Source of the DNA: Squalus acanthias
Taxonomy: Eukaryota
DNA length: 64,000 bases
NCBI GenBank assembly: GCA_030390025.1
Contig: CM059432.1
Coordinates: 24,492,001 to 24,556,000, forward strand
Direction of reading: 5' to 3'
The position numbers were made by a program, and so were the translations under genes. The notes under the pieces are model-generated. The model had not been told where the DNA came from and made no database searches. It saw nothing but the letters and a program-made list of their open reading frames with translations. Below are positions 10,206 to 39,149 of this stretch, in pieces (position 1 is the first letter of the stretch; each line of letters starts with the position of its first letter).

Positions 10206-10245
10206 ACGGGCACAACAGACCGATGAGTGTAAAGAAATCAAAGTG

Positions 10246-16330: not shown

Positions 16331-16795
16331 AGTACTTAAAACAGCGGGACCAGGACTTAATACAGCGGGAGATATAATCAGCAGCGTGGAGCTAATTGGA
16401 GATGGTATCAGCGGCAGCAGTACTTAATACAGCGGGAGACCAGGCAGCGCGGACCTAATTGGAGGTGGTATCAGTGGCGCCGGTACTTAAAACAGCGGGA
16501 GACAGGGCAGTGCGGACCTAATTGGAGGTGGTATCAGTGGCGCCGGTACTTAAAATAGCGGGAGACAGGGCAGTGCGGACCTAATTGGAGGCGGTATCAG
16601 TGGCGCCGGTACTTAAAACAGCGGGAGACCAGGCAGCGCGGACCTAATTGGAGGCAGTATCAGTGGCGCCGGTACTTAAAACAGCGGGAGACAGGGCAGC
16701 GCGGACCTAATTGGAGGTGGTATTAGTGGCAGCGGTACTTAAAACAGCGGGAGACAGGGCAGCACGGACCTAATTGGAGCTGGTATCAGCGGCGC
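16331..16795 (+). repeat. 63-bp tandem repeat, ~7 copies, in CR1 5' UTR
   Basis: Period measured from 16501 to 16564; unit tacttaaaacagcgggagacagggcagcgcggacctaattggaggtggtatcagtggcgccgg. Confidence 0.95.
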
Positions 16796-19029
16796 CCGAA
16801 CCTTCGATGATTTCCAAAAAAACAAGGAGCGATGTCACAGGACAGCCAGGTAGGTGATTGGTTGGTGAGTATTAAGGTTTTTTTTTCCTCTCTTTTCTCT
16901 CTAACCTGGGACAGTGCTTTAAACTAGGTGCAGGAAACTACAAAGTACTGTATTAAATTTATAGCTTAACTAGTTAAACTAATGAATATAATTGAACAAA
17001 GACTTTAACTAATTAAATAAATAAAATAAGGCTAGACTAAGATATGGCAGGGCAGGTTGTGTGTCTGGACTGCAGTATGTGGGAGTTTGTGGACAGCGAT
17101 ACTGTCCCGAGCGAACACGTCTGCAGGAGATGTCTCCATCTCGAATCTCTCCGGCTCAGAGTCATTGAGCTGGAGTGTGAGTTGGAGACACTCCGACACA
17201 TAAGGGAGGGGGAGGAATTTCTGGACAGTTTTATCGAGAATGCAGGCACACCCCAGAGGAAAGCACAGGTTCAGGAAGGGGAAGGTGTGACTGCTTGGGA
17301 GCTGGGTTGTGGGGATTTAGGAGAGGTTGAGAAGGAGGTCCTGCAGACACTGGTCCTGTCCAACAGGTATAAAGTACTCGCTACCTGTGAGGACAAGGAG
17401 AAAGACTGCAGGGAGGACAGCCACAATGCAGACCAAGGCACCGTGGCTCAGAAGGCTGTCCAATGGGGGGAAGAACAGAATAGAAATGTGGTAGTGATAG
17501 GGACTCTATAATTAGGGGGATAGATAGCATCCTCTGCAGCCAAGAATGAGAATCCTGAAGGGTAAAGGATATCTCACGGTGGCTGGAGAGGAACTTGGAA
17601 AGGTAGGGGGTAAATCCAGTTGTAGTGGTCCCTGTTGGAACAAACAACATTGGTAGGAACAGGGAGGAGGTCCTGCTGAAAGTGTATCAGGAGTTAGGCT
17701 CTAAATTAAAAAGCAGGACCTCAAGGGTAATAAATTCTGGATTATTGCCCGAGCCATGTGCAAATTGGCATAGAAGCAGACAGATCAGGAGAATTAACAC
17801 ATGGCTAAGGGGCTGGTGTGGGAAAGAGGAGTTCCTTTTCATGGGACACTGGCACCAGTTCTGGGACAGGAAGGAGCTGTACTGATTGGATGGGCTCCAC
17901 CTGAACCGGGATGGGACACGTGCCCTAGTGGAAAGGGTAAAAAGGGAGGTGGCAAAGGCTTTAAACTAGTAAGATGGAGGGAGGGATCTACAAGAAATGT
18001 AACCAGCCTAATTATAAACAAAACAGGAAAAGAAAACATAGGAAAGAATAAAGTAAGGGAGGACATTGATGGCAAGAGAATAAACAGAGTTATAGAACAG
18101 GAGTCTAAAAAGACGGTTAAATATAAAGCGAGAGGAAATCCTATTAAAAATTAGTTAAACTGTTTGTACAGCAATGCACACAGTGTTCGTAATAAAACAG
18201 GGGAGCTGCAGGCAATCATGCGTTGCGAGGAACCAGACATAGTGGGGATTACTGAGACATGGCTACAGAAAAATCAGACTGGGAATTAAACATTGCAGGG
18301 TATAACATATTTAGAAAAGATAGAGAGAGAGAAAGGGGAGGTGGAGTAGCTGTACCTTTTCGGGATAACATAATAGCAGTAGAAAAAAGTGACGCAGCTA
18401 TCAGCAAGAAAAAAATAGAATCCATATGGATAGAGATAAAAGATAATAAAGGATCAATTACACTAGTAGGCGTAGTCCTACAGACCACCTAATAGTGAAA
18501 GGGAGGTGGAGGAAGAAATATGCAGACAAATTAGGGAAATGAGTAAAAAGCATAGAATAATAATCATGGGGGATTTCAGTTACCCCGCTATTAATTGGAC
18601 AGAAGAGGTAGGTAAAGGGGATAAGGGAATGGAGTTCCTACAAGTGTACAGGACTCCTTTCTAACCCAATATGTAAAATGCCTAACAAGGGAGGATTCGC
18701 TATTGGATCTGATAATGGGGAATGAACCAGAGCAGATAAGAGAAGTAAAAGTAGTGGAACATCGAGGCAATAGTGACCATAATATAATACACTTTAAGAT
18801 GATAATTGATAAGAATATAAGTATGACGAAAACCAGGGTAATAGATTGGAGAAACACTGATTTTGAGAGGCTGAGAATAGAACTTGGGAAAATAAAATGG
18901 GCAACAATATTAGCAAACAACAATGTAGAACAGCAATGGGAAACATTTAAAACGGTGTTCAACAGAGTGCAGGAACAATATATTCTGCTAAAAGGAAAGA
19001 ACAAGCTAAACCCTACTGAGACTCCATGG

Positions 19030-19105: not shown

Positions 19106-20512
19106 AAAGAGGCATACATTAAGTACATAGACAGCAGGGGAGTGCATGATAAGGGAGAATATGAAAAGATTAGGAGAGAATTCAAAAACAATTAGGAAGG
19201 CAAAGAGGAACTATGAAATTAAATTATCAAGGAACATAAAACAAAATAATAAAATATTTTACAGCCACATCAATAAAAAAAGGAAGGTTGGGATGGGAAT
19301 CGGGCCATTAATAGATAGACAGGATAATACCACAGGTAATGATAGAGAGATGGCAGATATATCAAATAATTATTTTGCTTCAGTATTTACCAGGGAGATA
19401 GAACAGGTGGACATGACATTGGATGATGAGATTAGTAATGAGATAAGTGCATTTAAAATAAAAAGAGGATATATTAAATAAACTAATGAAACTCAAAGAG
19501 GATAAAACCCCTGGTGCAAATGGATTGCAGCCATGCATTTTAAAAGAATCGAGGGAAGATATAGCAGAGGCATTACTACACATATTTAATAATACGTTAG
19601 AAAAAGGTGCAGTTCCAGAGGATTGGCGGATAGCTAACATAATATCTATATATAAGAAGGGGGATAGAACATGTCCAGGGAATTATAGACCAGTTAGCTT
19701 AACATCAGTGGTAGGAAAAATAATGGAATCCCTACTAAAGGAGAAAATAGAAGAACATCTAGAAACCAAAAATATAATAATGAATAGTCAGCATGGATTT
19801 CAAAAGAGGAGGTCTTGCTTGACCAATCTCATTGAATTTTTTGAAGAGGTAACAAAGAGAGTAGACAATGATAATGCAGTAGATGTAATTTATCTAGATT
19901 TTTAAAAGGCCTTCGATAAGGTACCCCATAATAGACTGATGAACATGGTCAGAGAATGCGGAGTCAGGGGACAAGTAGCAGAATGGATTGCTGGCTGGCT
20001 TCAAGACAGAAAGCAGAGAGTGGGGGTAAAAGGTAGCTATTCACAGTGGCAGAAGGTGGGTAGTGGTGTTCCACAAGGATCAGTGCTGGGACCACTGTTA
20101 TTCATAATTTAGACTTTGGAATCAAAAACACAATTTCTAAATTTGCGGATGACACCAAATTGGGCAGGATAGTCAATACTGAGGAGGCCTGCAACAACTT
20201 ACAGGAGGACATTAATAAACTTGCAGAATGGTCATATAATTGGCAAATGAAGTTCAACACAGATAAATGTGAGGTATTACATTTTGGTAGGAAGAATAGG
20301 GAGGTCACTTATTACTTGGAGGGTGCGAGTCTACATGGGGTAGAGGAACAAAGGGATCTCAGAGTACAAATGCTCAAATCACTAAAAGTTGCGACACAGG
20401 TTAGCAAGGTCATAAAAAAAGCATGATGTGGAGATGCCGGCGTTGGACTGGGGTGGACAAAAATGAGAAGTCGCACAACACCAGGTTATAGTCCAACAGA
20501 TTTATTTAATTT

Positions 20513-20549
20513 TACAAGCTTTCGGAGCTTTTCGCTCCTTCCTCAGGTA
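20513..20549 (-). ncRNA. Minimal hammerhead ribozyme motif (copy on the inverted PLE arm)
   Basis: Reverse complement of 22438-22474. Confidence 0.7.
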
Positions 20550-20787
20550 GGTTAGCAGTGAGAGAATCTCCCAGAATTCACAATTTAAACACAGACAAAA
20601 TCTATTCAAATCTTTCCCTACATCAAAGACACACTAAGAGCACAGCCAAGACAATGAGATGTGTCCCAGGGGGTCCAACGTGTCAAACCATCTGCTGGCT
20701 GCATACCCTGTCAATTTGTGTTGGTTCTTGTGTTAGTCTTTTTTAAAAAAAAAACAAACACCTGGGAAGACCGGCCATGATGTCAAG

Positions 20788-21214
20788 TCACGTTCTGTAT
20801 CGTGACATGAACCCGATATCGCGATTGAGGCCATCCTCATGAGTGCGGAACTTGGCTATCAGTTTCTGCTCTATGATTTTGCGCTGTCGTGTATCCCGAA
20901 GGCCGCCTTGAAGAACGCTTACCCGCAGATCCGAGGCTGAATGCCCCTGGCTGCTGAAGTGTTCCCCGACTGGGAGGCAACCCTCCTGCCTGGCGATTGT
21001 TGCGCGGTGTCCGTTCATACGTTGTCTCAGTGTCTGCATGGTCTCGCCGATGTACCATGCTCTGGAGCATCCTTTACTGCAACGTATGAGGTAGACAACG
21101 TTGGCCGAGTCACATGAGTATGTACCGTGTACCTGGTGGGTAGTGTCCTCACGTGTGATGATGGTATCTGTGTCCATGATTTGGCATGTCTTGCAGAGGT
21201 TGCCGTGGCAGGGT
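20788..21214 (-). pseudogene. Inverted copy of the PLE GIY-YIG coding end
   Basis: 129-aa minus ORF identical to the C-terminus of the 356-aa ORF except one residue (KII vs KTI). Confidence 0.92.
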
Positions 21215-21218
21215 CGGT

Positions 21219-22197
21219 TTCCTCAGAATCGGTTTCATTCTTGGACACACGAATCTCCATCAAAGACGGACGCCTCAGCACTTCACTCTACCGCAAGCCC
21301 ACGGACAACCTCACGATGCTCCACTTCTCCAGCTTCCACCCTAACCACGTTAAAGAAGCCATCCCCTATGGACAAGCCCTGCGAATACACAGGATCTGCT
21401 CAGACGAGGAGGAACACGATGGACACCTACGGACACTGAAAGATGCCCTCGCAAGAACGGGATATGACGCTCGACTCGTCGATCGACAGTTCCAACGGGC
21501 CACAGCGAAAAACCGCATAGACCTCCTCAGAAGACGAACACGGGACACAACCAACAGAGTACCCTACGTCGTCCAGTACTTCCCCGGAGCGGAAAAACTA
21601 CGCCATGTTCTTCGCAGCCTTCAACATGTCATCGATGACGACGAACACCTTGCTAAGGCCATCCCCACGCCTCCACTACTCGCCTTCAAGCAGCCGCCTA
21701 ACCTCAAAAGTACCATCGTTCGCAGCAGATTACCCATCTTTCAGGAGAACAGCAACCACGACACCACACAACCCTGCCACGGCAACCTCTGCAAGACATG
21801 CCAAATCATGGACACAGATACCATCATCACACGTGAGGACACTACCCACCAGGTACACGGTACATACTCATGTGACTCGGCCAACGTTGTCTACCTCATA
21901 CGTTGCAGTAAAGGATGCTCCAGAGCATGGTACATCGGCGAGACCATGCAGACACTGAGACAACGTATGAACGGACACCGCGCAACAATCGCCAGGCAGG
22001 AGGGTTGCCTCCCAGTCGGGGAACACTTCAGCAGCCAGGGGCATTCAGCCTCGGATCTGCGGGTAAGCGTTCTCCAAGGCGGCCTTCGGGATACACGACA
22101 GCGCAAAACCATAGAGCAGAAACTGATAGCCAAGTTCCGCACTCATGAGGATGGCCTCAATCGCGATATCGGGTTCATGTCACGATACAGAACGTGA
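21219..22197 (+). pseudogene. PLE ORF C-terminal part: RT thumb, Cys linker, GIY-YIG endonuclease (open, but lacks the RT catalytic core)
   Basis: FLDTRISIKDGRLSTSLYRKPTD..FHPNHVKEAIPYGQALRIHRICS; PCHGNLCKTC; VVYLIRC..WYIGET..LRQRMNGH..EQKLIAKF..GLN. Confidence 0.92.
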
Positions 22198-22437
22198 CTT
22201 GACATCATGGCCGGTCTTCCCAGGTGTTTGTTGTTTTTTTTTTAAAAAGACTAACACAAGAACCAACACAAATTGACAGGATATGCAGCCAGCAGGTGGT
22301 TTGACACGTTGGACCCCCTGGGACACATCTCATTGTCTTGGCTGTGCTCTTAGTGTGTCTTTGATGTAGGGAAAGATTTGAATAGATTTTGTCTGTGTTT
22401 AAATTGTGAATTCTGGGAGATTCTCTCACTGCTAACC

Positions 22438-22474
22438 TACCTGAGGAAGGAGCGAAAAGCTCCGAAAGCTTGTA
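22438..22474 (+). ncRNA. Minimal hammerhead ribozyme motif in PLE pLTR
   Basis: tac CTGAGGA a GGAGC gaaaa GCTCC GAAA gc TT gta: catalytic core, 5-bp stem II, 3-bp stem I, palindromic AAGCTT in place of stem III. Confidence 0.7.
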
Positions 22475-22716
22475 AAATTAAATAAATCTGTTGGACTATA
22501 ACCTGGTGTTGTGCGACTTCTCATAAAAAAAGCAAACCAAGCACTAGGGTTTATTTCTAGAGGTATGGAATTGAAAAGTAGGGAAGTTATGCTAAACCAG
22601 TATCGAACCTTGGTTAGACCACACTTAGAGTACTGCGTACAGTTCTGGTCGCCATATTATAAAAAGGATATAGAGGCACTGGAGAGGGTGCAGAGAAGAT
22701 TTACAAGGATGATACC

Positions 22717-23960
22717 ATTCTACCCACCCTCTGCACAAAGAATTGTTTCAAACTTCCATTTAACTCTTTTCGTGATTGTTGTGCCAGCCAGCAAAAACAA
22801 TTGTTCACTATTTACCTTATCAAAACCCTTCACAATCCTGAAGATCTCTAGCATCTCAGCTCAATGAAAAGAGCCCTAATTTCTCACTTCTCTCTCTTCA
22901 TATCATTATCCCTCCTCCCTAGTGAATTTACCCTCCAACTTTTCCATTGCTTTCTATAATGGAGTAACCAAAACTGTACACAATACTCGAATGCAATCTA
23001 ACTACAGGAAACTCTTTCGTATCCGGCACCGACGGGACCGGGATGGTGCCGATTGATTAAAAATTCCGGATAACGGAGAGGTATATCTACCGAGGCTATT
23101 TTTAACAAACAAAAATAAAAACATCAAGAAATGTGCAGTATAATTGGGTACTCCCCTACAGAATGTTGTGTTAAATGGATGGTGGAAGATGCTTGATTAA
23201 GTACAGTAATGCCAGTTGAGGGTAATCCATAACTCTTTAATTACTTAACAGTAAAACAAAACTTATAAACGACTGTATACTGTAGTTTTCGGAGTATGAA
23301 TTCTGCCGGTTATTAGAGAATTCCGGATATTTAGGTGCCGTTTAAACGAGAGTTTCCTGTAGCATCTTACACAAGTTCAACATTATCGCCTTGCTTTTGT
23401 ATTCTATGCTTCTCGATACAAAGTCATAGATTCTGTTTGCCGTTTTTATGGCCTTATCTACTTGCACTGCCACCTTTAATGCCCTGTGTATCTACATACT
23501 GAGATCCCTTAGCTCCTCTACTCCATTGAAAATCTTACCAATTAAAGTTTACTTCCTTTCCATAATGCATTTCTTTTTTTTTTCTAAATTGTGTATCTGG
23601 CCATCTTGCTAGCCTTCTATAGTCTTTTGCAAGTCCAAATCGCTTGCATGTAAATAAGAGTGGCCCCAACACATGACCCTGTGGAACATCACTTACCACT
23701 TCTTTTCAGGCCACGAAGCTTCCTTTTACCCTTATCCTTTGCTTTACAGCCTCTATCTCCCATATAGCCACACTTCCTTTAGCTCTATGTACCATTACTT
23801 TTATCATAAATATTTTAAGTGCTACCTTACCAAATGTTTTTTTCAAAATCCACATAAACCACACTCAATGCATTTACTTAATTTTTTTTCCCATTATTCC
23901 TTCAAATATTACTATAAGGTTGATCAAACACAATCTGCCTTTGAGAAAATGGTGCGGACT
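22717..23960 (-). mobile_element. Old, heavily decayed CR1 fragments
   Basis: Residual similarity to CR1 RT (e.g. HHFLKGRLCLINLIVIFEG, aaactgtacacaatactc). Confidence 0.6.
23005..23359. mobile_element. Tigger/pogo-type MITE
   Basis: TIRs caggaaactct / agagtttcctg flanked by TA on both sides; non-coding. Confidence 0.85.
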
Positions 23961-24035
23961 GGCCCTGATAAACTCAGTTTTTCCCAAGATCCCCAGCAAT
24001 GTGAGCCATTCCCACTGATGCCATGGCCTAGATTT

Positions 24036-24143
24036 TCTGAAATAAAAACAGAAAATGCTGGAAACACTCAGCAGATCAGGCAGCAACTGTGCAGAGAGAA
24101 ACAGCGTTAATATTTCAGGTCGATGACCATTCATCAGAACTGC
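24036..24143 (-). mobile_element. Short non-coding PLE-like element (single arm) with hammerhead core
   Basis: Homologous to the arms of 26850-27083; minus strand reads gtt CTGATGA atggtcatcgacct GAAA ta TT aac. Confidence 0.75.
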
Positions 24144-24226
24144 TTTCGTTCGGGGTCAGGGAGGGAAAGATCAGAGGGGATAGTGAAAACACGCCAAAGG
24201 GTGAGAGTGGAAAGAGGGATGGGGAA

Positions 24227-26165
24227 AGAAGAGCATGCCAGGAGCAGCACCAGGCTAACCTAAAAATGCGGTGCCAACCTGGGAAAGCTGCAACACAGGA
24301 CTACATGCATGCTAAAAAGCGGAAGCGGCATGCTATAGACAGAGCTAAGTGATCCCACAATCAACAGATCAGATCAAAGCTCTGCAGTCCTGCCACATCC
24401 AGTCGTGAATGGTGGTGGACCATTAAACAACTAACGGGAGGAGGAGGCTCCATGAATATCCCCATCCTCAATGATGGTGGAGCCCAGCACGAGTGCAAAA
24501 GACAAAGCTGAAGCATTTGCAACCATCTTCAGCCAGAAGTGCCGAGTGGATGATTCATATCGGCCTCCTCCTGAGGTCCCCACCACCACAGAAGCCAGTC
24601 TTCAGCTAATTCGATTCACTCCACGCGATATCAAGAAACGGCTGAGCGCACTGGATACAGCAAAGGCTATGGGCCCCGACAACATCCCGGCTGTTGTGCT
24701 GAAGACTTGTGCTCCAGAACTAGCCACGCCTCTAGCCAAGCTGTTCCAGTACAGCTACAACACTGGCATCTATCCGACAATGTGGAAAACTGCCCAGGTA
24801 TGTCCTGTCCACAAAAAGCAGACAAATCCAATCTGGCCAATTACTGCCCCATCAGTCTACTCTCAATCATCAGCAAAGTGATGGAAGGTGTCGTCGACAG
24901 TGCTAGCAAGCGGCACTTACTCACCAATAACCTGCTCACTGATGCCCAGTTTGGGTTTCACCAGGACCACTGAGCTCCAGACCTGATTACAGCCTTGGTC
25001 CAAACATGGACAAAAGAGCTGAATTCCAGAGGTGAAGCGAGAGTGACTGCCCTTGACATCAAGGCAGCATTTGACCATGTGTAGTATCAAGGAGCCCTAG
25101 TAAAACTGAAGTCAATGGGAATCGGGGAGAAAATGCTCCACTGGCTGGAGTCATACCTGGCACAAAGGAAGATGGTTGTGGTGGTTGAAGGTCAATCATC
25201 ACAGCCCCAGGACATCATTGCAGGAGTTCCTCAGGGCAGTGTCTTAGGTCCAACCATCTTCAGCTGCTTTATTAATGACCATCCCTCCAACATAAGGTCA
25301 AAAATGTGGATGTTCGCTGATGACTGCACAGTGTTCAGTGCCATCCGCAACTCCTCAGATAATGAAGCAGTCCATGCTGCATGCAATAAGACATTCAGGC
25401 TTGGGCTGATAAGTGGCAGGTAACATTTGTGCCATACAAGTGCCAGGCATTGACTATCTCCAACAAGCAAGAGTCTAACCACCGCCGCTTGATATTCAAC
25501 GGCATTACCATCATCGAATCCCCCACCATCAACATCCTGGGGTCACCATTGACCAGAAACTTAACTGGACCAGCCACATAAATACTGGCAAGGCTTTGGG
25601 GGGTCAGGAGGTGAGACACTCACCGCAGAATACCTAGTATCTGACCTGCCCTTGTCCTTCTCTCTACTTGCCTGGATGAATGCAGCTCCAACAACACTCA
25701 AGAAGTTCGACACCGTCCAGGACAAAGCAGCCCACTTGATTGGCACCCCCTCCACCAACTTAAACAGTCATTCCCTCAACCACCTTCGTACCATGGCTGC
25801 AGTGTGTACCATCTACAAGACGCACTGCACCAACTCACCAAGGCACCTTCGGCAGCACCTCCCAAACCCGCGACCTCTACCACCTAGAAGGACAAGGGCA
25901 GCAGGTGCATGGGAACACCACCACCTCCAAGTTCCCCTCCAAGTCACACACCATCCTGACTTGGAAGTATATCGCCGTTCCTTCATCGCCGCTGGGTCAA
26001 AATCCTGGAACTCCCTACCTAACAGCACTATGGGAGCACCTTCACCACACGGGCTGCAGCGGTTCAAGAAGGCGGCTCACCACCACCTTCTCATGGTCAA
26101 TTAGGGATGAGCAATAAATGCTGGCCTTGCCATCGACGCCCAGATCCCATGAACGAATAAAAAAA
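24227..26165 (+). mobile_element. 5'-truncated decayed LINE of the CR1/L2 group (distinct family)
   Basis: [24 protein letters not shown] and MFADDC motifs; tail gcaataaatgctggccttgcc..cccatgaacgaataaaaaaa. Confidence 0.85.
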
Positions 26166-26849
26166 TATATATATTCTCAGGCTTCCCCTCAACTTTCAAA
26201 TAGATGCCTACATTGCACTTGTATCTACCGTTCAAATGGTGCAATGCCAGGAAATACGTTGGAGACAGTACTTCCCTCATGTGCATCTTCCTCCCATTGG
26301 TCCACCCACAAATGGACTGGTGTATTCTGCATAACTGGTCTTGGGCATCAATAAATGGGGGAGATACAAAGGCGCCGCCGGTACATGTGCCCATAGATAC
26401 GTATAACCTGGGTACAAACTCAATTACGTGGCTTAAAAAATTGCAGACTTTTGGGCATACGTGAGTTACACTCGTAACTCCGATACGCTTAAATCTCTTT
26501 GATCCTGTATAGTCATCTATCAATCCCTCCAAACACATGCATCTCCACCCATAAAACTGGCCCCAATCCCAAATTAGTGAGTCTCATATACCAGTTTCCT
26601 ACAATTGCGCTTGCTCAGAGATATATCTGTTAGGTAATGACCATTTCCCAAAAGAGAAAGCCCAGTCAGCTCCCCATGGCATTCAACAACACCATTAATG
26701 TCAATTCCCCACCATTAACAGTTGGGGGTTACGACTGATCAGGAGCTTAACACCATGGCTGCAAGAGCAGGGCAGAAGCTGGATACTCTGTAGCTGCAAC
26801 AACACTCAGGAAGCTCGATACTACCCAAGACAAAGCAGATTACTTGATT

Positions 26850-27083
26850 ACAAAAGCAAAATAATGCGGATGATGGAAATCTGAAATAAAACCAGAAAAT
26901 GCTGGAAATACTCAGCGGGTCAGGCAGCATCTCTGGAGAGAGAAACAGAGTTAACGTTTCAGGTCAATGACCTTTTGTCGGTTCTGACGAAATGTCATCG
27001 ACCTGAAACGTTAACTCTGTTTCTCTCTCCAGAGATGCTGCCTGACCTGCTGACTATTTCCAGCATTTTCTGTTTTTATTTCC
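26850..27083. mobile_element. Palindromic non-autonomous PLE-like element carrying a hammerhead core
   Basis: ~104-bp inverted arms around a 2-nt loop (26982-26983); ~28-nt one-sided tail; 12-bp TSD gattacttgatt at 26838-26849 and 27084-27095. Confidence 0.85.
26981..27015 (+). ncRNA. Minimal hammerhead ribozyme motif
   Basis: gtt CTGACGA aatgtcatcgacct GAAA cg TT aac; stem I gtt/aac; palindromic AACGTT; one stem II mismatch. Confidence 0.6.
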
Positions 27084-28375
27084 GATTACTTGATTGTTTG
27101 ATAACGCTCTGTGAAGCGCCTTGGGGCGTTTTACTACATTATATAAATACAAGTTGTTGTTGTAACACCTCTGCCGCTGGACTCAATAACCACCCTTCTT
27201 CTTGTTCCTATATCACTCATAACACACCAAGAAAATTGTTATCTCACGTTTGGATATTCAGGACCCTCCGCACATCTGACAGCACCTGCCTCATCTATAA
27301 CTGGTCCTCCATTTATTTAAGGGGCTGGCACGCAGGTTGTTATCAATTAAACAACTGAAATTCCAGTTGTGTATGTACACATTTTATCAGCAGAATTCCT
27401 CATTAGCTCCTCATCCTCTATTTTGTGTTGTGGTTTAAGTCATATCAAAATTTCGGCTGACCCAAACAGACTGCTTCACATGATTTGGAGGGTACAATTG
27501 GATTATCTTTTCATGGACAGAGATAGCCATTTCAACAAATGAATGGAGGATTCACCTCCTTCTCCAGTGGAAGCTATAGCAGTGACTGGGGATCCAGATG
27601 GAACACTTGAATATCTGTCTCATCACCATACGTTTGTTGAACCAATACCATTTTGCAGTTAGGGTGTTAAGAAGCAGAGGTAGGAGAAGCCTTATGTTTG
27701 CCTCTCCAGCTTCTGAACCTCTTTTTGCAAGAGAAGATAAGTCTGATTCTCATGTTTCCCTCTACTAACACGCAAGATAATAGAGGTTATGAAGTGTGCT
27801 TTACAAGCATTCCAGAGCACCATACAAAGATATATTTCAGTTTGAGTTTGACATTCCCTTAATATCAATAAGTCTCACATCAAATTTGCAATTCAAACAT
27901 GTTAGATCTAGATTGGACAAGTCAGTCGATCTGCAAGATGGAGTTTGTAAGCTAGCAGGATCAGTTGAATGCTGTTGTATTTAAAGTTATTTTGGATCTT
28001 AACAAATCTATTCCTTTATCATTCAATCTTAGATTTGAATGTACCCTGAAATAAGTACACTCACCTTACTCACTGAACCACAAGGATGCTCAGATCACTT
28101 TTAGAGTGTTTCCTTTGCTTGGGTTTTCCACGTCAGGTACTATTCCCAGGATATACACAAACCTCTATTGCAAAGCTTTTGACAAATTGGCACTGAGCTA
28201 AAAGTCACACTTAGAGATGCCATAAAGATGGCTGGTGGGGGAAATGGAAAAATTCACATTGGTGTAGTACAGACAGACTTCTGAGAATGGGATTGAGGCG
28301 CATTATTGAAGTAGAGTAGAGAGAGCTTTAATCTGTATCAAACATATACACGGGCATACTTGACACTGAAACTGA

Positions 28376-30117
28376 GGCCGCGATTTTCCTTACCTTGGCG
28401 GGTCCGTGGTGGGCGAGGTCGCAGGTGGGTTGCGGCCCCGCTGCTGGCTCCATTCTAGCCTCCGACATGACTTTCCCATGATTGGGATTGTCAAGCCTGC
28501 CCAGCGCGTTTCACAGCCCAATTGAAGGAAGCGGGTCTGATGACGTAATTTGATGACGCGTCATCAGCCAGTTTCCTTAAAGGGACCATGCACAAATTTA
28601 CTTTGACATTTGTGCTGTCAGTGTTCTACAGCATTGAGGTGCTGCAAACACTGACAATCACTGCACAAAGGTGCACGGCTGCATCCAGGCTCTCCCATGA
28701 CTCCCTCCATATGCTTATGGAGGAAGTCACAGCACACAGGGAGGTTCTCTTCCCTTCCAAGGGGCGGAAGAGACCGCCCCAGGAGAGTAACACAGCCTGG
28801 TTGCACATTGCACAGGAGGACACAAGCATGGATGTCGTCAGGAGGACCAGGCTGCAGTAGCGCAAACCTTTCAATGATTTCAGTAGATCACAAAACGCTA
28901 CTGCAAATCCACACTCATCACATCCCCATCACTCTGCCTTCCCTACCCTACTCCTGCACATCCTTACTCATACCAACTTAACTTGCACCTCCACCCATCT
29001 CTCTCTATCTACATTATCACTTCCCCATCTCACTAGCCCTAGTCCAAACATAACAACTAACAACACACAAGGGTAGGCACTTGTGTGTTTTAGCCAATGT
29101 TCATGTGAAGTTTCTGTTAATGTGCTGTCAAACATTGAAATCTTTGTTTTCAACAGTTTGTGTTCTTGGACAGATTTGTGTGCACCTTTGGAAGTGGCTT
29201 AGTGAGTTGCAGTGAGTGGTGAGACATAACAGTACCCCTCGCAACGCTGATGAGTGTGAAAGGAATGGCTTGGGCATTGTAGGGATGCTTTATGGTGTTT
29301 GTGTGGGGTGGTACCAACCTGGCATATCATATGGCAGCCAGAGTGTGCAGCGTCTAATGAAGTAAATGTGGCCATGGTGAGGCCATCCCTGGCGTCCCGT
29401 GCAGCAATGTGGTCGGGTGCTGATGCCCTCTGTCCTGTGCAGCATCAGGTAACTGTGGAGAAGGTTGGTGTGGTTGTTGGCGCTGCTGGTGTGCATGGTG
29501 ATGCTGGTGTTGCGGCTGATCGTGGTCAGATTCTGAGGACCAAGGTGAGAGTATAAAGTGTACCCATGCTAATGGAATAGATGGCAGGTGAACTTGAGAT
29601 GACAGAAACAATCTGTAAATGGTGAGAGATGTTGTTCCAATGAGGTGATACTGGATAGAGAGTTTGATCCAAACACTTGCAACCTGCATAAAGCTCAATC
29701 TGTCTTCCAAATGCAGTAAGCAATAGCTTCTGAGCTTGGAAAGTAAACAGCTGTGAGATGGGAGCTTTTATAGCACATTTCAAGCTGTCAAATAAGGAGA
29801 TGATTCCATGGCCATTCAACTCCCGCCTCAGCTTAACAGACGTGATCCCCAAGCAGCGTGGACCCCGTTGGCGAGCTGGTAAATTCTAAAGGTGAGCTCA
29901 AAATTGTTGTTAATCCTCTGTTAACGAGGTGATAATGACCTGAATTGCCTCCTCCACCGCTGTGTCTCGGGTCTGCTCAGCGCTGGCAGACCCGACATTT
30001 GGTAAAGGCGCGTGCCAGCGGGTTGACAGCAGGGTTCCGACCCACTGTCAAAAAAAAGCACTTTCCCATCCAACCCGCCGCTGATCATGCCCGCTGACAC
30101 CCCGGAAAATTCCCCCC
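28376..30117. mobile_element. Internally deleted PIF/Harbinger transposon
   Basis: Imperfect TIRs ggccgcgattttcc / ggaaaattcccccc with tga/tta flanks; Myb/SANT remnant on + (28680-28885: SLHMLMEEVTAHREVLFPSKGRKRPPQ..AWLHIAQ..RTRLQ*RKPFND); His/Gln-rich putative transposase 5' end on - (~29380-29570). Confidence 0.7.
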
Positions 30118-30555
30118 TTACTGCCAGAAGTCCCATTCCCCAGTGCTGACATCCCTCACTTCGATGAGAAAAGAGAAATCATTTTAATGAATGCTATGGT
30201 CCCTGTAATGTTTCTGAGTCGGGCCAATATTCAAGAATCCTGTTTACAAAATCCACATAAAATCACAAAGGCTTGGTGTTAATATTCAAATGGAACTTTG
30301 TGAATCATCATGGTTGTTACAATATTGTACTTTATGTGTGGTTCTATGCAGCAGTTTAAAGGGTAATTCATGTTTTAATAGTAACATTTATTTTTAATGA
30401 GTCATTTCCAAGAAGAATAGATTGCAACCTTTTATATATTACCATCTAGTTACAAACATGTTCAATATCATTTATTCTTTTCTATAAAATGAGCTTTTGC
30501 AGTTATTGCAATGTCAAAGTGTTCTGCAGCACCTACTGAGGAGTAAATATTTGAG

Positions 30556-30609
30556 ATGTATCTTGGTTTTTATCCATTTGGAGTGGGAGTTGCTAGGACC
30601 ATTGATAGT
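30556..30609 (+). other. Candidate first coding exon MYLGFYPFGVGVARTIDS
   Basis: TATAAAA at 30483, ATG with G at -3, upstream in-frame stop, donor |gtaagt at 30610; non-repeat DNA. Confidence 0.25.
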
Positions 30610-31233
30610 GTAAGTAAATAGAATTTGCAGAGTACACTGTCAATTTGGAAAGACTATGCTATGCATTAGAAGGCCTGGTTAACCCAAAGTTTGCAAGCAA
30701 ATATGTGATTGTTAAATAACCTGCAAATCCGTGGCCTGATAGCAAAGCAGGTAAGTCACCCTATCATCACGTTGGATGCATTTTTGGATAATTGTTTCAT
30801 TTACTTACATTGTATATCCACAATATGTAAAACAGATAGCGACTGCGGATCCCAACATTTTGGCAAAGTAGAAAATTTGTTCTAACTTTGAAATTCTGTA
30901 TGAAAAATGCAGTCTTAATTCTACTCTTCACTGTAGTCTATTTAACTTAAGGTTAATTTCATTCTGCCATACTTCTCCAAACAATACAATGTTCACCAGA
31001 ATTAGAATACAATTTCTTACTTATTCCCCACAGGGTAGTGATCATGTGGAATTCCAGAGAAATTATTTGATTCAAGGTCGAGTAGGACTTTTAGGAAGCA
31101 GTTGGATCCATATCTGTCAAGAAAGAAATTGAGGCTATTGAAGCTATTAATAGCACTGGGGAAGGCACTTAGCAAGTATGGAACCAAAAGGTAGTGGGTA
31201 TGGAGGAGAGTGGTAGTTGATGCTGACGATTGG

Positions 31234-31652
31234 GGGTACGGTAGCATTGTGGCTATGTTACTTGACTAGTTATCCAGGAGTGCTTGGATTAATGATGTAG
31301 AGATATGAGTTCAAATCCCATGACAGCACCTGGGGAATTTAAATTCAATTAATGAATTAAATAAATCTGGAATAAAAAGCTACTATCAGTAATGGTGACC
31401 GTCAAACTATCAAATTGCCATAAAAACCCATCTGGTTCACTAATGTCCTTTAGGGAAGGGAAATCTGCTGTCCTATATGTGTCTCCAGACCTACAGCAAT
31501 GTGGTTGACTCTTAACTGCCCTCTGAAATGGCCTAGCAGCCACTTATTTAAGAAGGCAGCTCACCACCACCTTCTCAAGGGCAATTAGGGTGAGGCAATA
31601 AATACTGGCCTTGCTGGCAACACCCACATCCCATGAATGAATAAAAATAAAT
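31234..31652 (+). mobile_element. tRNA-derived SINE sharing its 3' tail with the LINE at 24227-26165
   Basis: A-box-like ggtagcattgtgg, B-box gagttcaaatccc; tail aagaaggcagctcaccaccaccttctcaagggcaattaggg..cccatgaatgaataaaa. Confidence 0.85.
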
Positions 31653-32004
31653 AATAGTCTCTGGAGTTTGGTGTTGAATGGCCTTTTCTTTCTGAGAACA
31701 TTTTTACATTCCTCTACTTAGTGCCACAACTGGTAAGTTATTTGTGGTTTCCAAGTATTACCAAACTCTCTTTCAAACCCAGACAATAATGACATGATGG
31801 GCAAGCTGCTTCTGTTAAGAATTATAGCACGTTAACATCTATGTATGTGTGTAGATTTTAGGCATGGACAGGCTCAGGGTCGGCTGTAATGGCCCCCAAA
31901 CTCAAAAAGACACTGACATTTATTTTCCAGGCTTTCCCGTGAAGAACGGCTAGTTTGGCACTGGAGAACCACTACCATCCATGAATTTACTCCCATATGC
32001 GTAA

Positions 32005-32375
32005 GTGGTGTAGTGTGGTGGTTGTGTTACTGAACTAGTATTCCAGAGGTTTGGCATAATCATCTAGAGAATGTGAGCTCAAAACCCACCATTGAAGTTT
32101 GAGAATTTGGTTTCAGTTTTAAAAAATCTGGAAATAAAAAGCTGTGACCATGAATCTGTCAGTTTGTTGTAAAAACCCAACTGTGGTACACTAATGTCCT
32201 TTAACTGGTTTTACCTGGTCTGGTCTACATGTAACTCCAGTCCCACAACAATATGGTGGACTCTGAAGTGGCCTAGCATGTCACTCAGTTGTACCAGGAC
32301 ATCAAGAGATGGGTAATAAATGCTGGCCTTGTCAGTGACACCCAAGTCTCCAAAATGAATAAATAAAAAAATAAT
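32005..32375 (+). mobile_element. Second copy of the same SINE family
   Basis: Collinear with 31234-31652. Confidence 0.8.
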
Positions 32376-33025
32376 GGGACACCAAATGAGAAGAGAACAT
32401 TGGACCATATTTTGCGACCCCTACGGGTGCGTACGAGGGGGTGTGCACGCACCCATAGGGGCCGCACAAGTTCCGGGTTTAGGCATGCGAAGCACATGCG
32501 CTGAAACCCGGCACTTGCGATCTGCTTTTACAGGTTGAGCGTCCTGAATCCGGCAACCTCGGGACCGAGGCCGAGCCGGTTTTCATGTTTTTCCAGACTT
32601 CGGAACGTGTTTCTGATGTCCGAAGTCCGGAAATATCGCAACCTGGGCTCGGGCGTTTCCGGACTTCGGACATCAGAAACACGTTCCGAGTCCGGAAATG
32701 CCTGGGCCCAGGTTGCGATATTTCCAGTTTTTTGGACGTCACCTTGTAGTTCTGCTCCTCGCAGGCCTTGTAGTCCTCGCTTCTTCGCAACACATGGTAA
32801 GCCTCCCTCTCTTGTTTTTGCAACGCTGTACTCTGTAACTGTACTTAATGTGAGCTTCCTGGCCTGTAACTTTTGCTACCATCTTCAAATTTGAAAAGGA
32901 ATGTACAGTACTCAAAGCATGAAATATAATAAAGGTTTTTATTTGTAAAACAGTTAAGTTATGAAATATAAAACAGTAAATGAAGGCTTTTATTTGTTAA
33001 ACAGAGTAAAAATAAACAGGTAGAG

Positions 33026-35075
33026 TTACAATTGGCTGGAGGTTGTGCTTGAGGTAGAGGGCGCAGCTATGATGTCTGGGGCTGATGATGGGCCAGCAAT
33101 AGGATTATCAAATGTGGAAATTACTGGTGTAGTTGCACGCTGTAGGTCTTGGGCCTTCTGTTGCGACATCTTTTGAAAGATATTTAATATTGTTGTTTGT
33201 TTAAATAATTTGGGCTTTTCTTTCACTAATCTTTCCCGAATTCTGTAGACCTGCAGTATTTCTTCTTCACTTATGAAGCTTCGTTGCTCTAAGGCGTGAA
33301 TTAATTCTTGACAAAGATTGATTGCCTTGTCAATGGGCACTTTTTCAACTTGATCACAGGCATCATCATCATCCTCACTGCTTTCATCCTTTTCTTCTGG
33401 ATGCAAAACCCCCTGCATGGTTTCTTCATCTGTCACTGCATGCACAATGGGAGTGATGTAAGAAAACTACTAGGCACTTGGTCTAAGCGTTAAACAAAGC
33501 TTTAATCAACTGTTTTACAACATGGAGGTCCAGTTGTGTCCTTCACTAGTTCCTGTTCAGAATGTCCTGCGCAAGCTGGGCCCGTGCCCGAGTATTTATA
33601 CTCTCCCTGGACAGCGCCACCCGCAGGCCACGCAGTATTATTTCATAAGTCTTTCTTTCATGAATGACAGATTCATGTCAGGGAGCATCGTTGTCTATGT
33701 CCATGACTTCTGCGACATCGTCCTCATTCAATTCCTGCGCAGCTTTGCAAGTCAGCCCTCTTGCATAATCTAAAAGTTGAGCAATCATTGCTTTCTCCCT
33801 GGACACACGAAAGCCTTGAAAGTCCTGAGGAGCATCATCAGCATCATCGTCAGCAAACATAGTTGATGGCCAGATGTTATGCCAAGCATTGACCAAGGTG
33901 TCTGCAGTTACCAAGTTCTATGCATCCGCAGCTGTCCATATGGCGTCCTTGATAGAGAAAGTTTTTGAGAATGCTTTTATTCCCATGCCTGTGTTCACAG
34001 CATTAAGTAAACACCTCATGAACTCGTTTTAGTACAGACACTTCATCGATCTCAAAATTCCTTGGTCCATTGGCTGTATCAGTGATGTAACATTTGGAGG
34101 TAAGTAGATTCCATGGACATTATCCTTTACCAAAAGCTCAGCATCGGGATGTGCTGGGCAATTGTCTAGCAGCAAGTTTATTTTGCAGTTTTCCTCAAGG
34201 CCAGCTTCCGTGCGATGAGCACGCGCCTGAGGGACAAAATTCTTCTCAAACCAGTTCAGAAAGATTACCCTGGTTACCCATGCTTTCCTATTGGCATAAT
34301 AATGCACTGGCAATACTGTCAAACCCTTGAAACATCTTGGACGCTGGCTTCTCCCAATGACCATAAGTTTACACTTATGTGTCCCAGCCGCATTTTCAGC
34401 AGCAAGCACAGTCAACCTATCCTTGGCGTCTTTAATACCTGCTGGCTGCGTTTCTTCTGCTGCTGCTAATGTCTTTCGCGGTAGGTAGCGCCAAAACAGT
34501 GCTGTCTCGTCAGCATTGTATATTTGCTCAGGTGAAAGGTTTTCATCAGCAATTAGTTTGATGAACTCATCAATATAATTTTCAGCTGCCTCGTGATCTG
34601 CTGAGGCTTTCTCACCACATACTTTTAGTTGCCTGATGCCATGATGCCTTTTAAATTTGACTAGCCAACCAGAAGAGTACTCGCATGGAGTTTCAATCCC
34701 CAGTTGTGCATGGAATATTTTAGCTTGTTGCACCACCATTGGGCCAGACAAATGAACCTTTTCACTTTGCCTCTGTCGCCACCATTCCATCACTGCTCGA
34801 TCCAAATCATCACATTTCGGCTTATGCATACTTTTTCTCTTACTCATTTCCTTATGAACATCACTTTCCGCATAAAACTTCATGAGCTGTTCTTTCTGTT
34901 TTCTAATATCATAGATGGTGGAGAGTCCAACACCATACTCCTCACTCAATCTTCTCACTGAAGCACCTCTATCTAATCTCTGAAGTAACTCAACATTCTT
35001 GGCAATTGAAAGTGAACTATGCTTCCTCTTTCCTTTATCTGAACCCATTGGGGTATCAGTTGGCCTTTTTGACAT
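33026..35075 (-). pseudogene. Tigger/Jerky-like (CENP-B family) DDE transposase with premature stops and an LTR insertion
   Basis: N-terminal HTH, SSGWLVKFKRHHGI, YNADETALFW, LLLDNCPAH and LPPNVTSLIQPMDQGI motifs; stop at 34029; acidic C-terminus. Confidence 0.93.
33454..33680 (-). mobile_element. 227-bp solo LTR
   Basis: TG...CA ends; 5-bp TSD gggag; minus-strand TATAAATA and ATTAAA; removing it restores DAP|IVHAVTDEE in frame. Confidence 0.85.
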
Positions 35076-36093
35076 GTTTGCAATGACAACACAAATTCAC
35101 AATCTTCACCTGTGCAGATCTTCAAATCAGGAAAAACACCACAGCAATGGAGTCAGGTTGGGTGGGGTCTGATCATGGGGTGTAGGTTGGTCACCTGGGG
35201 TTGATTCTGGCCAAAGGGACTTGTGTGCTGTGCAGAGTTACTGCGGACCCAGGAGCAGCGGTGCGGTGACTGTGAAGACCTGGCCTGGAGCAGGTAGGAT
35301 TGGTGTTTTTATTCTTGCGATTTTTGTCACTGTACAGTAGTTGGATTTCATTTTTTGACTTTTCACTGGGCCCGGCTGTCAGCGGAAACGGTTTGACAGG
35401 GTGTCCGGATTCCGGTACATTTTACGGATTCCGGACGACCCTGCCACCAATCGTCCTGGAGTCCGGATTCTGGAACATTCCGGATTCCGGAACTCCGGAT
35501 TCCGGAACTCCGGATTTTGGACGCTCAACCTGTACCATCATAAGAGCTTTAAAAAATAGAAAAATAAAATTTTATCACTCACTTATACTTTAAAAACCCT
35601 GTCCAATAAGGTAAGTTTATATTTAGCCCCGTTAAAAGATATACTTAAAAAAAAATTACATTTGTTTAAAATATTTAATTAAATGCCATTTTAATTAATA
35701 TTATATATGTAATTTATTTATTTATTTATTTCATGTGTTTGTGTATTTTTTAAGTCATCCCCATTTATACTTATGACAGTTCCGTGCGTATGGAATCCCC
35801 ATAAGTATAAATGGGGATTCCCTTCTTTCATTGGTTGGGCTGGTCCACGTGATCCCAGGGGCGCTTGCGAACCGCATGTGCCCCTGGGATACGTGGGCCT
35901 CTACATATTTCTACCAGGAGAGGCAAAGGATCGCAAGCCTCCGTAATTCCCGGGCTACCAGGTAAATGCATCGATTTTTTGATGATCGGAGGCCTCCGAT
36001 CGCAAATTCAGGCCCATTATTTTTTTAACTCTCCTTAGATGATAATTTGTGATGTCAAATACATACATACACAATTAAAATTTTGTTCAAGAA

Positions 36094-37075
36094 TATTCAG
36101 TGTGGCAGAAGGTGGGTAGTGGTGTTCCACAAGGATCAGTGCTGGGACCGCTGCTGTTCACAAGTTACATTAACGATTTAGACTTTGGAATCCAAAACAA
36201 TTTCTAAATTTGCAGATGATGCCAAATTGGGGGGGATAGTCAATACTGAGGAGGACTGCAACAAATTACAGGAAGACATTAATAAACTTGCAGAATGGGC
36301 AAATATTTGGCAAATGAAATTCAACAGAGAAAATGTGAGGTACAGTATTACATTTTGGTAGGAAGAATAGGGAGGTCACTAATCACTTGGAGGGTGTGAG
36401 TCTAGGTGGGGTAGAGGAACAAAGGGATCTCGGAGTACAAATACACTATTCACTATTATTTCTAGAGGGATAGAATTGAAAAGTAGGGAAGTTATGCTAA
36501 ACCTGTATCAATCCTTGGTTAGACCACACAGAGTACTGCGTGAAGTTCTGGTCACCATATAAAAAGGATATAGAGGCACTGGAGAGGGTGCAGAGAAGAT
36601 TTACAAGGATGATACCAGAAATGCGAGGGTAAACATATGAGGAAAGGATGAACAGGCTGGGTCTCTTTTCCCTTGAAAAAAGAAGGCTGAGGGGTGACCT
36701 AATAGAGGTCGTTAAAATTATGAGAAGTTTTGATAGAGTGGATACAGAGAGAATGTTTCCACTTGTGGGGAAGAGCATAACTAGAGGCCATCAATATAAG
36801 ATAGTCACCAAGAAATCCAAAAGTGAATTCCAAAGAAACTTCTTTACCCAAAGAGTGGTGAGAATGTGGAACTCGCTACCACAGGGAGTGGTTGAAGTGA
36901 ATAGTATAGATGCATTTAATGGGAGACTGGACAAGCATATGAGGGAGAAGGGAATAGAGGGTTACACTGATAGATTTAGATGAGGAAAGACGGGAGGAGG
37001 CTCGAGTGGAGCACAAATGCCGGCATGGACTGGTTGGGCCGAATATGCCGTATATCCTATGTAATCCTATGTAAT
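36094..37075 (+). mobile_element. CR1 3' fragment, same subfamily as 16331-22716
   Basis: Near-identical to 20038-22716 by eye; tail cctatgtaatcctatgtaat. Confidence 0.9.
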
Positions 37076-39149
37076 AATTATGTGCTCAAGTTCCAGCACA
37101 TCTAACTCATGTGCGGGAATGCTACCAACTGAGCAAATTTACCTACAGTCCCAAGCTTGTCATTTCTCACAGTACAGTCATGAAGCCATTTTCTTTTGAT
37201 ATTCTAGAGATGTGCTGGAATTATAATGGATTTTCTTCCATTCACAGTATCACTGTGCTTTTATGAGTGGTCATTGCTGATGCCTGCAAGGAAGAGCATG
37301 GCAATCGTAATAACTACGAGTAGTAATGGTAGTTGTTCTTCAGATGTGAATGTCAGAATTCCAGGAGGGATGCATACAAGTGACAGAGATATCATGCAGA
37401 CAGCTGTTTCTGCACCAAAATGTGACACTTCAGATAATCCCATGGTACACTACTACACACTATAATGTGGGCTCATATTTCTTTTGACTGTTGTAGCAAC
37501 ATCAGACCAGTGTACACTGGAGGCATTGTATCCTTATAAATCTACCATCATTTTACAAGTCTCCAGTGTAAAGTCTCATGATTTAAACTACATTGCTGAA
37601 ATTTTGTGCTAATCAAGGTGAAAGATGTCAGTGCTGAAGAACTGAACATTTCTCTATTCACAGTGCTCAGTCACAACCTCGAACGTTCCATATTCTGACA
37701 GATTTCTATCAGATGCTGACAGACTTGCTATGTCTTTCTAACAATTTCTGTTCTTTTTCTTCAAATGCTGCCAGGTCAAGTATGCAGAGCATGGATTAGA
37801 TGTGAAGAGGAATTTTGTAGCGTTCTGCTCCCAGCTGGGAGTTTCAGAAACATGAGTCACAAAATTGGCACTACAGCATTCTAGCCCTATCTCCGACCTG
37901 CACTCATGCTCAGTGAGGCACCACACTGGAAGTGAAGCTTCACAAATTTACCTCACGATGCAAATCTCACTGCTTCACAAATTTACCTCACGATGCAAAT
38001 CTCACTCTGTCTCAACGCATTGTTTGAGGATTGTGAATCCAAATTCTTTCGATGTTTATCCCTGGTTTGTTCAATTCCGATACTCATGAATTGACATAAT
38101 ATAATATAATATAATATTGAAGGTTTCATTGAAAAGCTCCTCAAAGAAAGAACCATGTGACAGATAATGTAATGCTCAGCAACCATAGCATTGATGTGCA
38201 TCAGGCACAGACAACCCACATTATCTAGCGCTGAGGCTTCCTGTGCATCTGTGCTTTGGATGTAGTGTGGGATAATGCAGAGGGGAAGCACCCATGGAGT
38301 TGATGGCCTGGGCACTAGGCCTGCACTAGTCTTGTTAAGGCTTCAAAGAAATATGTTAACGAGATCCTTATCACATAAAGCAGGCTCAACACTTAACAGT
38401 GCTACTCAAGATCAGTGCCCATGGGTACTGGAAGGTTGGCCTGTTCAGCCATGTTGATTCCTGTTCTTTGAAGGGGAATCTGTTTCGTAGTAATTGTTGG
38501 TTGCATGTTGACCCACCAATTTTGTTATTTATTGCATTGTGACCTTCAGTTTCACTGCAGCTGCTCATACCTTTGTAAAGATGCACCCCATCTGTGATCT
38601 GCAGGTGTTAGTCTAGGGAAGTGTAATTGAGCTCTACCTAAATGGGACCTGTTGACATGTTGGTGGCCAACCCTCTGTATTTGTTGGTTCTGGAGGAGAA
38701 AAGGCAGGAATCCCTGAAGCATGCAGTACAGGCCATTCTAGGTACCCAAGGTGATTTAAATCTAAGGTCTTCTACAACCTTACCCTGCAACGAGCCACTG
38801 TGATGGAGCAGGTGGTGAAGAAGAGAACTTGCCTCAACCTGTTGCAGAAGAGGGCTCTGGCCATCAGCTACTTTATGTGAATCTGTAAACATGCAGGTGT
38901 CTTGCGATGGTTGCATGCTTGGTGTTTGTTTCTTTCATGGACCTCAGGGAAGATGCGTTGATGTGACAGCAATACAGAGCGCAGTTATAAATCACAGACA
39001 GACCTGCGTATTTGGAAAATAGGTCAACAGTTGCCAGAGTGTTGTGTATTCTCCCTCTATGATGCTCCACCAAGCTTATAATGTAGTGTCTGTTAAGATT
39101 CTTTGTAAGGCAACACTGTAAAATGAAGTATGAGCTTAACCATGGCAAC

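Follow-up and report, generated by a model that had tools for sequence, protein, structure and literature searches.

The small palindrome at 26838-27095 of the window (the whole stretch of Squalus acanthias DNA analysed, 64,000 nucleotides) is probably a promoter-less stump of an autonomous Penelope-like element (PLE), generated by priming on both target strands, run-off at the 5′ end of the RNA and head-to-head joining of the two products. To judge from sequence, its arm is the pLTR of an autonomous PLE of the Neptune/Nematis type (family 1).

The element is bounded by two identical 12-bp copies of GATTACTTGATT (26838-26849 and 27084-27095, unstranded), as the sequence-only reading had claimed, and the first four bases of the right copy also match the element (microhomology). 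A tailed arm on the minus strand (26850-26981, positions 0 to +131) and an untailed arm on the plus strand (26980-27083, positions -4 to +99) lie between them; arm numbering throughout takes C3 of the CUGA core as position 0. The tailed arm has a mutated hammerhead core and lacks the 5′ strand of stem I, and the untailed arm begins at the inferred transcription start. The claimed one-sided tail of about 28 nt is present on the left arm only (26850-26877, minus strand, +104 to +131, 28 nt) and terminates at the outer of two 3′ end points of the family. The inverted arms (26878-26979 and 26986-27087), given earlier as about 104 bp, are 102 nt long and 93% complementary. Their 2-nt centre also held up, the centre of symmetry being TT at 26982-26983, and folding gives an actual RNA loop of 4 nt. 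The tailed and untailed arms overlap at 26980-26981, which we read as a presumptive 2-nt microhomology with one base changed since, going by the identical junction in L002 and L014. This layout of tail and inverted arms is not due to chance, as a search of the 3.7-Gb genome found it again at all 40 places scored; 29 further loci were examined, the majority with a target duplication.

A minimal type I hammerhead is predicted at 26980-27016 on the plus strand (CTGACGA..GAAA CG TT AAC from 26984). Stem I is formed by 26980-26983 and 27013-27016, the core (26984-26990) is followed by an extra A (26991), and stem II (26992-26996/27000-27004) has a mismatch at 26993 (G>T). GAAA (27005-27008) precedes a palindromic ACGT, and the predicted cut falls after 27012. 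The hammerhead core reported at the centre of the palindrome does begin there, at 26984, but its stem II is mismatched and this copy fails the minimal-hammerhead descriptor at that stem, which a neighbouring PLE passes. The suggested check with the Rfam hammerhead model went against the window copy: no match was found in the window, neither at the gathering score nor at E ≤ 10. The only Rfam matches at E ≤ 10 were to microRNA and sRNA families, far under their cut-offs, and these weak matches stem from the hairpin alone. At the family level, the descriptor gave 179 distinct matches in the collected loci and none in 30 Markov controls of the window. The stems stay paired with different letters between lineages, and the loops vary from 3 to 9 nt. 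A minimal hammerhead in the pLTR, as expected of an EN+ PLE parent, is therefore found at the family level. Folding of a single arm was ordinary relative to shuffles (z -1.5), and a transcript reading through the palindrome is predicted to form one hairpin of about 100 bp (-165 kcal/mol) in which the hammerhead is buried.

A 19-nt arm pattern had at least 66,096 matches in the genome and a 32-nt core pattern 22,360 exact matches; reversed control patterns had 0-1, compared with these tens of thousands. Most of the first 30 core matches extended upstream into a pyrimidine-rich stretch, and in eight of these (L057, L067, L068, L070, L071, L076, L079 and L080) the end of a PLE ORF was found about 300 nt above the core. 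Arm copies collected without bias continued upstream into a 3′ UTR and the end of a GIY-YIG ORF. One copy (L107:3863-6694) contained 943 open codons encoding RT and GIY-YIG (DKG, YIDD and YIGET motifs), with Pfam matches to RVT_1 and GIY-YIG that were both under the curated cut-off. A 13-bp duplication frames this copy, which has a tailed inverted arm and an untailed arm and has lost its 5′ pLTR. No ORF is present in the window element. Its relatives are thus attached to a PLE ORF, a point that had been left for checking: the 943-aa frame and the ORF ends above the core both attest to it. The L107 protein (P0002) has a C-x4-CxxC linker and CxxC motifs, and no solved structure matched it. In the accessible text of PMC8557442, a CX2-5CxxC linker before GIY-YIG, together with CCHH, defines Neptune/Nematis, and the C-x4-CxxC linker points to a probable placement of the parent there.

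At the other end of the ORF, the arm was found upstream of the ORF start in 28 of 30 loci, with 3′ UTR sequence before the arm in 24, and in these partial tandems the tail runs on into the ORF start. Since arm and tail directly precede the ORF start in 28 of the 30 loci, they form the leader of the RNA. The alternative suggestion of the sequence-only reading, an extreme 5′-truncated product of a second PLE lineage, is therefore right, the arms running into the ORF end of that lineage and the tail into its ORF start. The ORF of the anole element begins within the hammerhead; for subfamily A such a start was ruled out by an in-frame stop after the tail in all seven loci translated. The parent has its ORF flanked by pLTRs (partial tandem), together with an inverted 5′-truncated copy and a tail of 30-40 nt at one end. 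Target duplications were 6-18 bp long, most commonly 14 (43 pairs, one mismatch allowed; the short values may be chance). A 5.2-kb copy (L101) had inverted arms of 2.1 kb, and L104, L105 and L106 (G000:C1:6.98-7.13 Mb) contained family 1 3′ ends recurring every 1.7 kb or so within several duplicated blocks.

The neighbouring PLE (20421-22524, plus strand) belongs to another lineage, family 2, and provided the comparison lineage. It consists of a 5′-truncated ORF end (21118-22197) and a tailed inverted arm, with intact minimal hammerheads at 22441 (+) and 20546 (-). Its arms are 99% identical across 754 nt, as befits a young insertion, its protein has a C-x4-CxxC linker, and an AATAAA is located about 40 nt behind the hammerhead, upstream of both 3′ end points. 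Between this element and the full-length family 1 copy there is no DNA similarity and 33% protein identity, which bears out the earlier remark that a nearby PLE has the same layout with unrelated sequence. The related copy claimed at 24036-24143 is a genuine solo untailed stump of family 1 (24036-24142, minus strand, positions -5 to +101, 88% alike). The much decayed copy claimed at about 37670-37750 survives as a weak 48-nt match (37711-37758, plus strand, 75%, E 0.001), possibly a decayed arm fragment, but contains no hammerhead. Family 2 is also represented by a solo untailed stump at 1992-2062 (+18 to +88), and a further self-complementary stretch of 110 nt (84%) is found at 32590-32698. 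Other elements in the window include a Tc5/pogo-type transposase frame (34029-35096, minus strand, 355 aa, CENP-B, HTH and DDE_1 domains), a near-complete LINE ORF2 (45526-48294, minus strand, 922-aa open frame, APE endonuclease and RT), more LINE RT pieces (5715-7367, 12826-13671, 42353-43690 and 51119-51931) and tandem arrays at 9272-10208 and 16342-16796 (periods of about 86 and 63-67 nt).

The outer ends were fixed in the 30 best matches to the whole element, their centres differed, and the centres of copies collected without bias varied too. Because the centres differ from copy to copy, we conclude that the palindromes arise at insertion. Stumps were found for every subfamily of the parent, none with the upstream TATA-like box, and both arms of a palindrome belonged to the same subfamily (58 A/A, 7 B/B, 3 A2/A2 and 3 unclear, of 71). 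Copy lengths graded continuously into ORF-bearing copies. One old family 1 palindrome had an identical centre and flanks at six loci, 82-87% alike (L014:1903-2045, L034:7189-7326, L083:2079-2219, L092:1506-1648, L177:3013-3156 and L206:1802-1944); this PLE stump travels as the passenger of a different dispersed repeat, one containing a (CTTCCTCCTCTTCTG)-like run, and was the only fixed-centre group found.

These observations bear on the sequence-only reading's first proposal, a non-autonomous ribozyme-bearing family that mimics the PLE layout. A self-propagating, retrozyme-like palindromic family mobilised in trans would account for thousands of short non-coding copies with target duplications and fixed outer ends, and for the recurrence of certain junction types. 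Promoter-retaining truncated copies could provide RNA in trans, and vertebrates do have retrozymes derived from pLTRs, according to the available part of bioRxiv 10.64898/2026.07.22.740005. However, the centres vary widely, the lengths are continuous with those of ORF-bearing copies, the arms are inverted rather than tandem, and a stump has no TATA-like box and would be transcribed into the single -165 kcal/mol hairpin. A non-autonomous master is unlikely given the varied centres, the stumps in each subfamily, the hairpin fold and the passenger status of the lone fixed-centre group; we regard such a family as largely refuted and its probability as very low. A MITE is rejected by the unequal ends, the duplications of 6-18 bp and the retroelement parent. 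A tRNA-SINE is rejected as well, as ARAGORN found 0 tRNA genes in window positions 20000-38000 and the pLTR accounts for the entire arm. Neither of these ordinary families, which the earlier note had named as possible refutations, therefore fits. A non-LTR retrozyme requires head-to-tail tandem units and was rejected because the arms here are inverted. Two short family 2 units do lie head to tail, 117 nt apart, at L346/L347 (G000:C1:246481391-246481541); each begins at -12 and has a hammerhead and an internal deletion, and the pair looks like the seed of a tandem retrozyme.

The 3′ ends of the arms fell into two clusters about 35 nt apart, at about +92 to +103 and +129 to +139, and nearly every short palindrome that could be classed used one of each. 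Among short family 1 pairs, 34 of the 35 classifiable were tailed plus untailed, none was tailed plus tailed, and the single untailed pair was an old copy (about 71-77%). This count leaves out loci picked by the whole palindrome or by the ORF start, as well as 8 further pairs that were unclassifiable, and most pattern-search loci lie at the start of contig C1; an earlier tally stood at 32 of 33 (p 4e-9). Family 2 showed the same pairing in 27 of 28 pairs, giving 61 of 63 classifiable pairs in the two lineages together. Solo short copies of family 1 were tailed in 47 cases and untailed in 40. A near-strict one-tail rule was not found in the open-access literature searched, the 2005-2006 PLE reviews aside.

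We take the one-tail rule to reflect two priming events. For the anole element, in vitro work showed that both target strands are cleaved and extended and that two internal RT starts bound the tail; a dimer is predicted, and uncut RNA is the main template (PMC11167929, in the portion available). By analogy with that element, which belongs to a different clade, the two 3′ points may be RT start sites. The element's enzyme would cut both target strands, and one cDNA per cut strand would start at each of two internal sites of the RNA 5′ leader, a dimer presumably performing both priming events. Both cDNAs would run off the likely 5′ end of the RNA, just before the uncut hammerhead, and would be joined head to head into a palindrome. 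Solo stumps would represent events in which one cDNA survived, and trimming at the join would explain 5′ ends that lie downstream by anything from a few bases to some tens of them.

The mirror arm could alternatively have been made by fold-back, with one tailed cDNA stopping near the hammerhead, priming itself and copying back to the inner end point. Self-priming has been proposed for rotifer Penelopes (PMC3846280, in the text accessible), and it would explain the one-tail rule without a dimer. The two arms always belong to one subfamily, and rare variants were common to the arms of one element in 16 of 212 cases, compared with 234 of 34,943 between elements. This 11-fold excess fits a single RNA, fold-back or later conversion alike. 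A few junctions also use the complementarity of stem I, with -4 joined to +29 (L221). However, a hand count of 31 pairs found the untailed arm reaching further 5′ than its tailed partner in about 12 (about 11 favoured the tailed arm and 8 were ties), and simple copying of the tailed arm could not have produced these untailed arms without a later deletion of the centre. In L069 the tailed arm spans +91 to +132 and the untailed arm 0 to +106; as the untailed arm reaches further 5′, a plain cDNA fold-back is excluded there without later deletion. In addition, solo untailed stumps (40 of 91) reach the same inner point with no mirror arm to copy from. We thus consider fold-back unlikely, and two priming events the better explanation of the mirror arm.

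The 5′ truncation point is not random, a feature that the sequence-only reading had missed. Of 72 family 1 arms unselected for their 5′ end, 13 started within the 10 nt from -8 to +1, compared with 9 in the 92 nt above; the remainder started at +2 to +27 (18 arms), at +28 to +30 (2), later (4) or beyond -100 (26). Among 100 family 1 matches listed, a hand count placed 71 starts at -6 to +5 and 1 at -7 to -9, with 28 long copies, the anchor of this search depleting long copies. In 53 of 56 long arms, which are related copies of about three subfamilies, TTA(A/T)A was found 29-33 nt upstream of the A at -4. The family 1 box is TTAAAA, not a canonical TATA, and the A at -4 lies in CCAGTTC, an initiator-like sequence.

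The family 1 cliff falls where stem I ends and where the sequence TTTTTCCAG resembles a splice acceptor; family 2 was for this reason taken as the comparison. The family 2 pattern had 49,641 matches, against 12 for its control. Here TATATAT was found 30-33 nt upstream of the A at -7, short arms ended at -6/-7, and there was no AG splice acceptor at the cliff. The subfamily of family 2 to which the neighbouring PLE belongs has its box at -43, and ends at -13/-14 were predicted for it before an enriched search, though after four such rows had been seen. Among 100 listed of 296 matches, a hand count gave 46 ends at -12 to -14, 8 at -15/-16, 18 at -7 and 28 elsewhere; the filter of this search hides ends beyond -16, one recurring junction accounts for 11 rows ending at -12 and 8 ending at -7, and 3 of these are local duplicates. 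A script placed 13 of the first 30 loci at -12 to -16, and two more were misread by the yardstick. Only about 13 of 100 copies in this subfamily were short. All three groups have their 5′ ends at an initiator-like A (about -4, -7 and -13) that follows a TATA-like box at a distance of about 30 nt. The 5′ stop moves with the TATA-like box and not with stem I, and the sequence arrangement makes the pile-up likely to mark the transcription start.

If the reverse transcriptase paused, whether because of the hammerhead fold or because of a splice acceptor and the proteins bound to it, the stop would not mark the RNA end. In favour of a pause, stem I of family 1 has its 5′ end at the cliff, where a pyrimidine tract is also followed by CAG, long copies pass the site freely, and the D. 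virilis intron terminates at the 5′ end of helix I (PMC4209133, as far as its accessible text goes). Family 2, however, has no AG acceptor at its cliff, which is 3 nt clear of stem I (-7) or about 9 nt clear of it (-13) and follows the box, and the junctions revealed no upstream exon in common. We therefore consider a pause improbable. Against the promoter reading stands the transcription start of D. virilis, which is about 120 nt upstream of the hammerhead and behind a 75-nt intron (PMC2377424 and PMC4209133, available parts). A pile-up at the ribozyme cut was not found: by hand count, 1-2 of 100 arms started at the predicted cut at +29. Of 79 rows ending at -4, 33 had a G in front (hand count, 21 mirror-templated rows dropped; background 0.31), an excess with p 0.006 at a background of 0.28 and 0.17 at 0.36. 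Before -3 ends there was no G excess (37 of 100 against 0.33), and the target duplication accounts for many of the bases at the junctions. A cap-copy G signature is thus weak or absent. A stump length bounded by the promoter was not found in the open-access literature searched, the supplements of the in vitro and retrozyme papers aside.

Only 2 of 28 ORF-start copies with an upstream arm began at -8 to +5, and 24 ran further upstream. Since these long copies pass the inferred start, they need another template or a jump. We propose that the template may be a read-through tandem transcript, a circle made by the hammerhead (suggested in the accessible text of PMC4209133) or a jump to the 3′ pLTR. 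No chimeras of upstream and downstream subfamilies were found (35 A/A, 19 B/B, 1 unclear), and RNA-to-RNA jumps are not shown by these copies. A tentative extension, which we find possible though not probable, is that PLE replication as a whole has a strong-stop step: the dimer would prime both strands in the 5′ leader and reach the capped end after about 100-135 nt, and the promoter and ORF would be copied only through a jump to the 3′ pLTR or on a circle. If so, the partial tandem would be built only after that jump or on RNA circularised by the hammerhead, which has no 5′ end. The tens of thousands of stumps would be failed events, preserving in the genome the point where transcription starts, both priming sites and the chemistry on the two strands.

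The stumps thus offer three genomic read-outs, namely that palindromes almost always have a single tail, that their 5′ stop is linked to the promoter, and that nothing points to a linear template cut by the ribozyme. The mechanism of tandem and inverted PLE insertion is called undefined in the accessible text of PMC8557442, and with these read-outs the question can be put to the in vitro system already established. In genome annotation, palindromes of this kind should be classed as PLE ends and not as MITEs, SINEs, retrozymes or microRNA genes. We estimate roughly 8,000 near-perfect 100-bp hairpins in family 1 (from 66,096 arms, with 16 of 66 non-passenger sampled arms paired), which might give rise to double-stranded RNA. 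Repbase or Dfam may well list the parent family already.

The layout of inverted arms with a tail is itself already published, and the stump is an instance of it. EN+ PLE insertions comprise a 5′-truncated copy and an adjacent inverted copy with a 30-40 nt tail at one end, and a TATA box and an Inr-like motif have been noted in a rotifer pLTR (PMC3846280 and PMC8557442, in the parts available). The elements described here share with those insertions the variable target duplication, the partial tandems and the pLTR hammerhead. They differ in that their arms are trimmed to about 100-135 nt with a stop that tracks the TATA-like box, and in that the single tail is near-strict here, whereas the accessible passages of the same two papers call it 'often' present or 'optional'. 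In Schistosoma, opposite-strand hammerhead pairs 100-700 bp apart have been ascribed to truncated PLEs (PMC4209133, accessible text). The hammerheads described there are likewise minimal type I, with an extra base before stem II, a short stem I and a palindromic stem III; stem II of family 1 is closed by A-U or G-U, unlike the usual G-C, and the pairs here abut at the centre.

Similar end points are known from the anole Poseidon element, where, in the portion of PMC11167929 available, the hammerhead is also followed by end points about 35 nt apart and 100-135 nt downstream, these lie in the pLTR part that precedes or opens the ORF, and uncut RNA is the template. That portion contains no model of inverted arms or of 5′ ends. 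Unlike Poseidon, the parent here has the Neptune/Nematis C-x4-CxxC linker, and the arm and tail of subfamily A are untranslated. Non-LTR retrozymes are similarly short, non-coding, hammerhead-bearing and derived from PLE pLTRs (bioRxiv 10.64898/2026.07.22.740005, available part; see also PMC7229834). Their units are repeated head to tail, an arrangement that allows dimeric ribozymes and circles to form (the former source, available part). The window element differs from them in being head to head, with one core per strand. In LTR retroelements, minus-strand strong-stop DNA is a short cDNA of fixed length that results from priming in the leader and run-off at the 5′ end of the RNA. The process modelled here would differ from this in being primed by cut target DNA and not by tRNA, twice per event, with the product left in the genome and with strand transfer putative.
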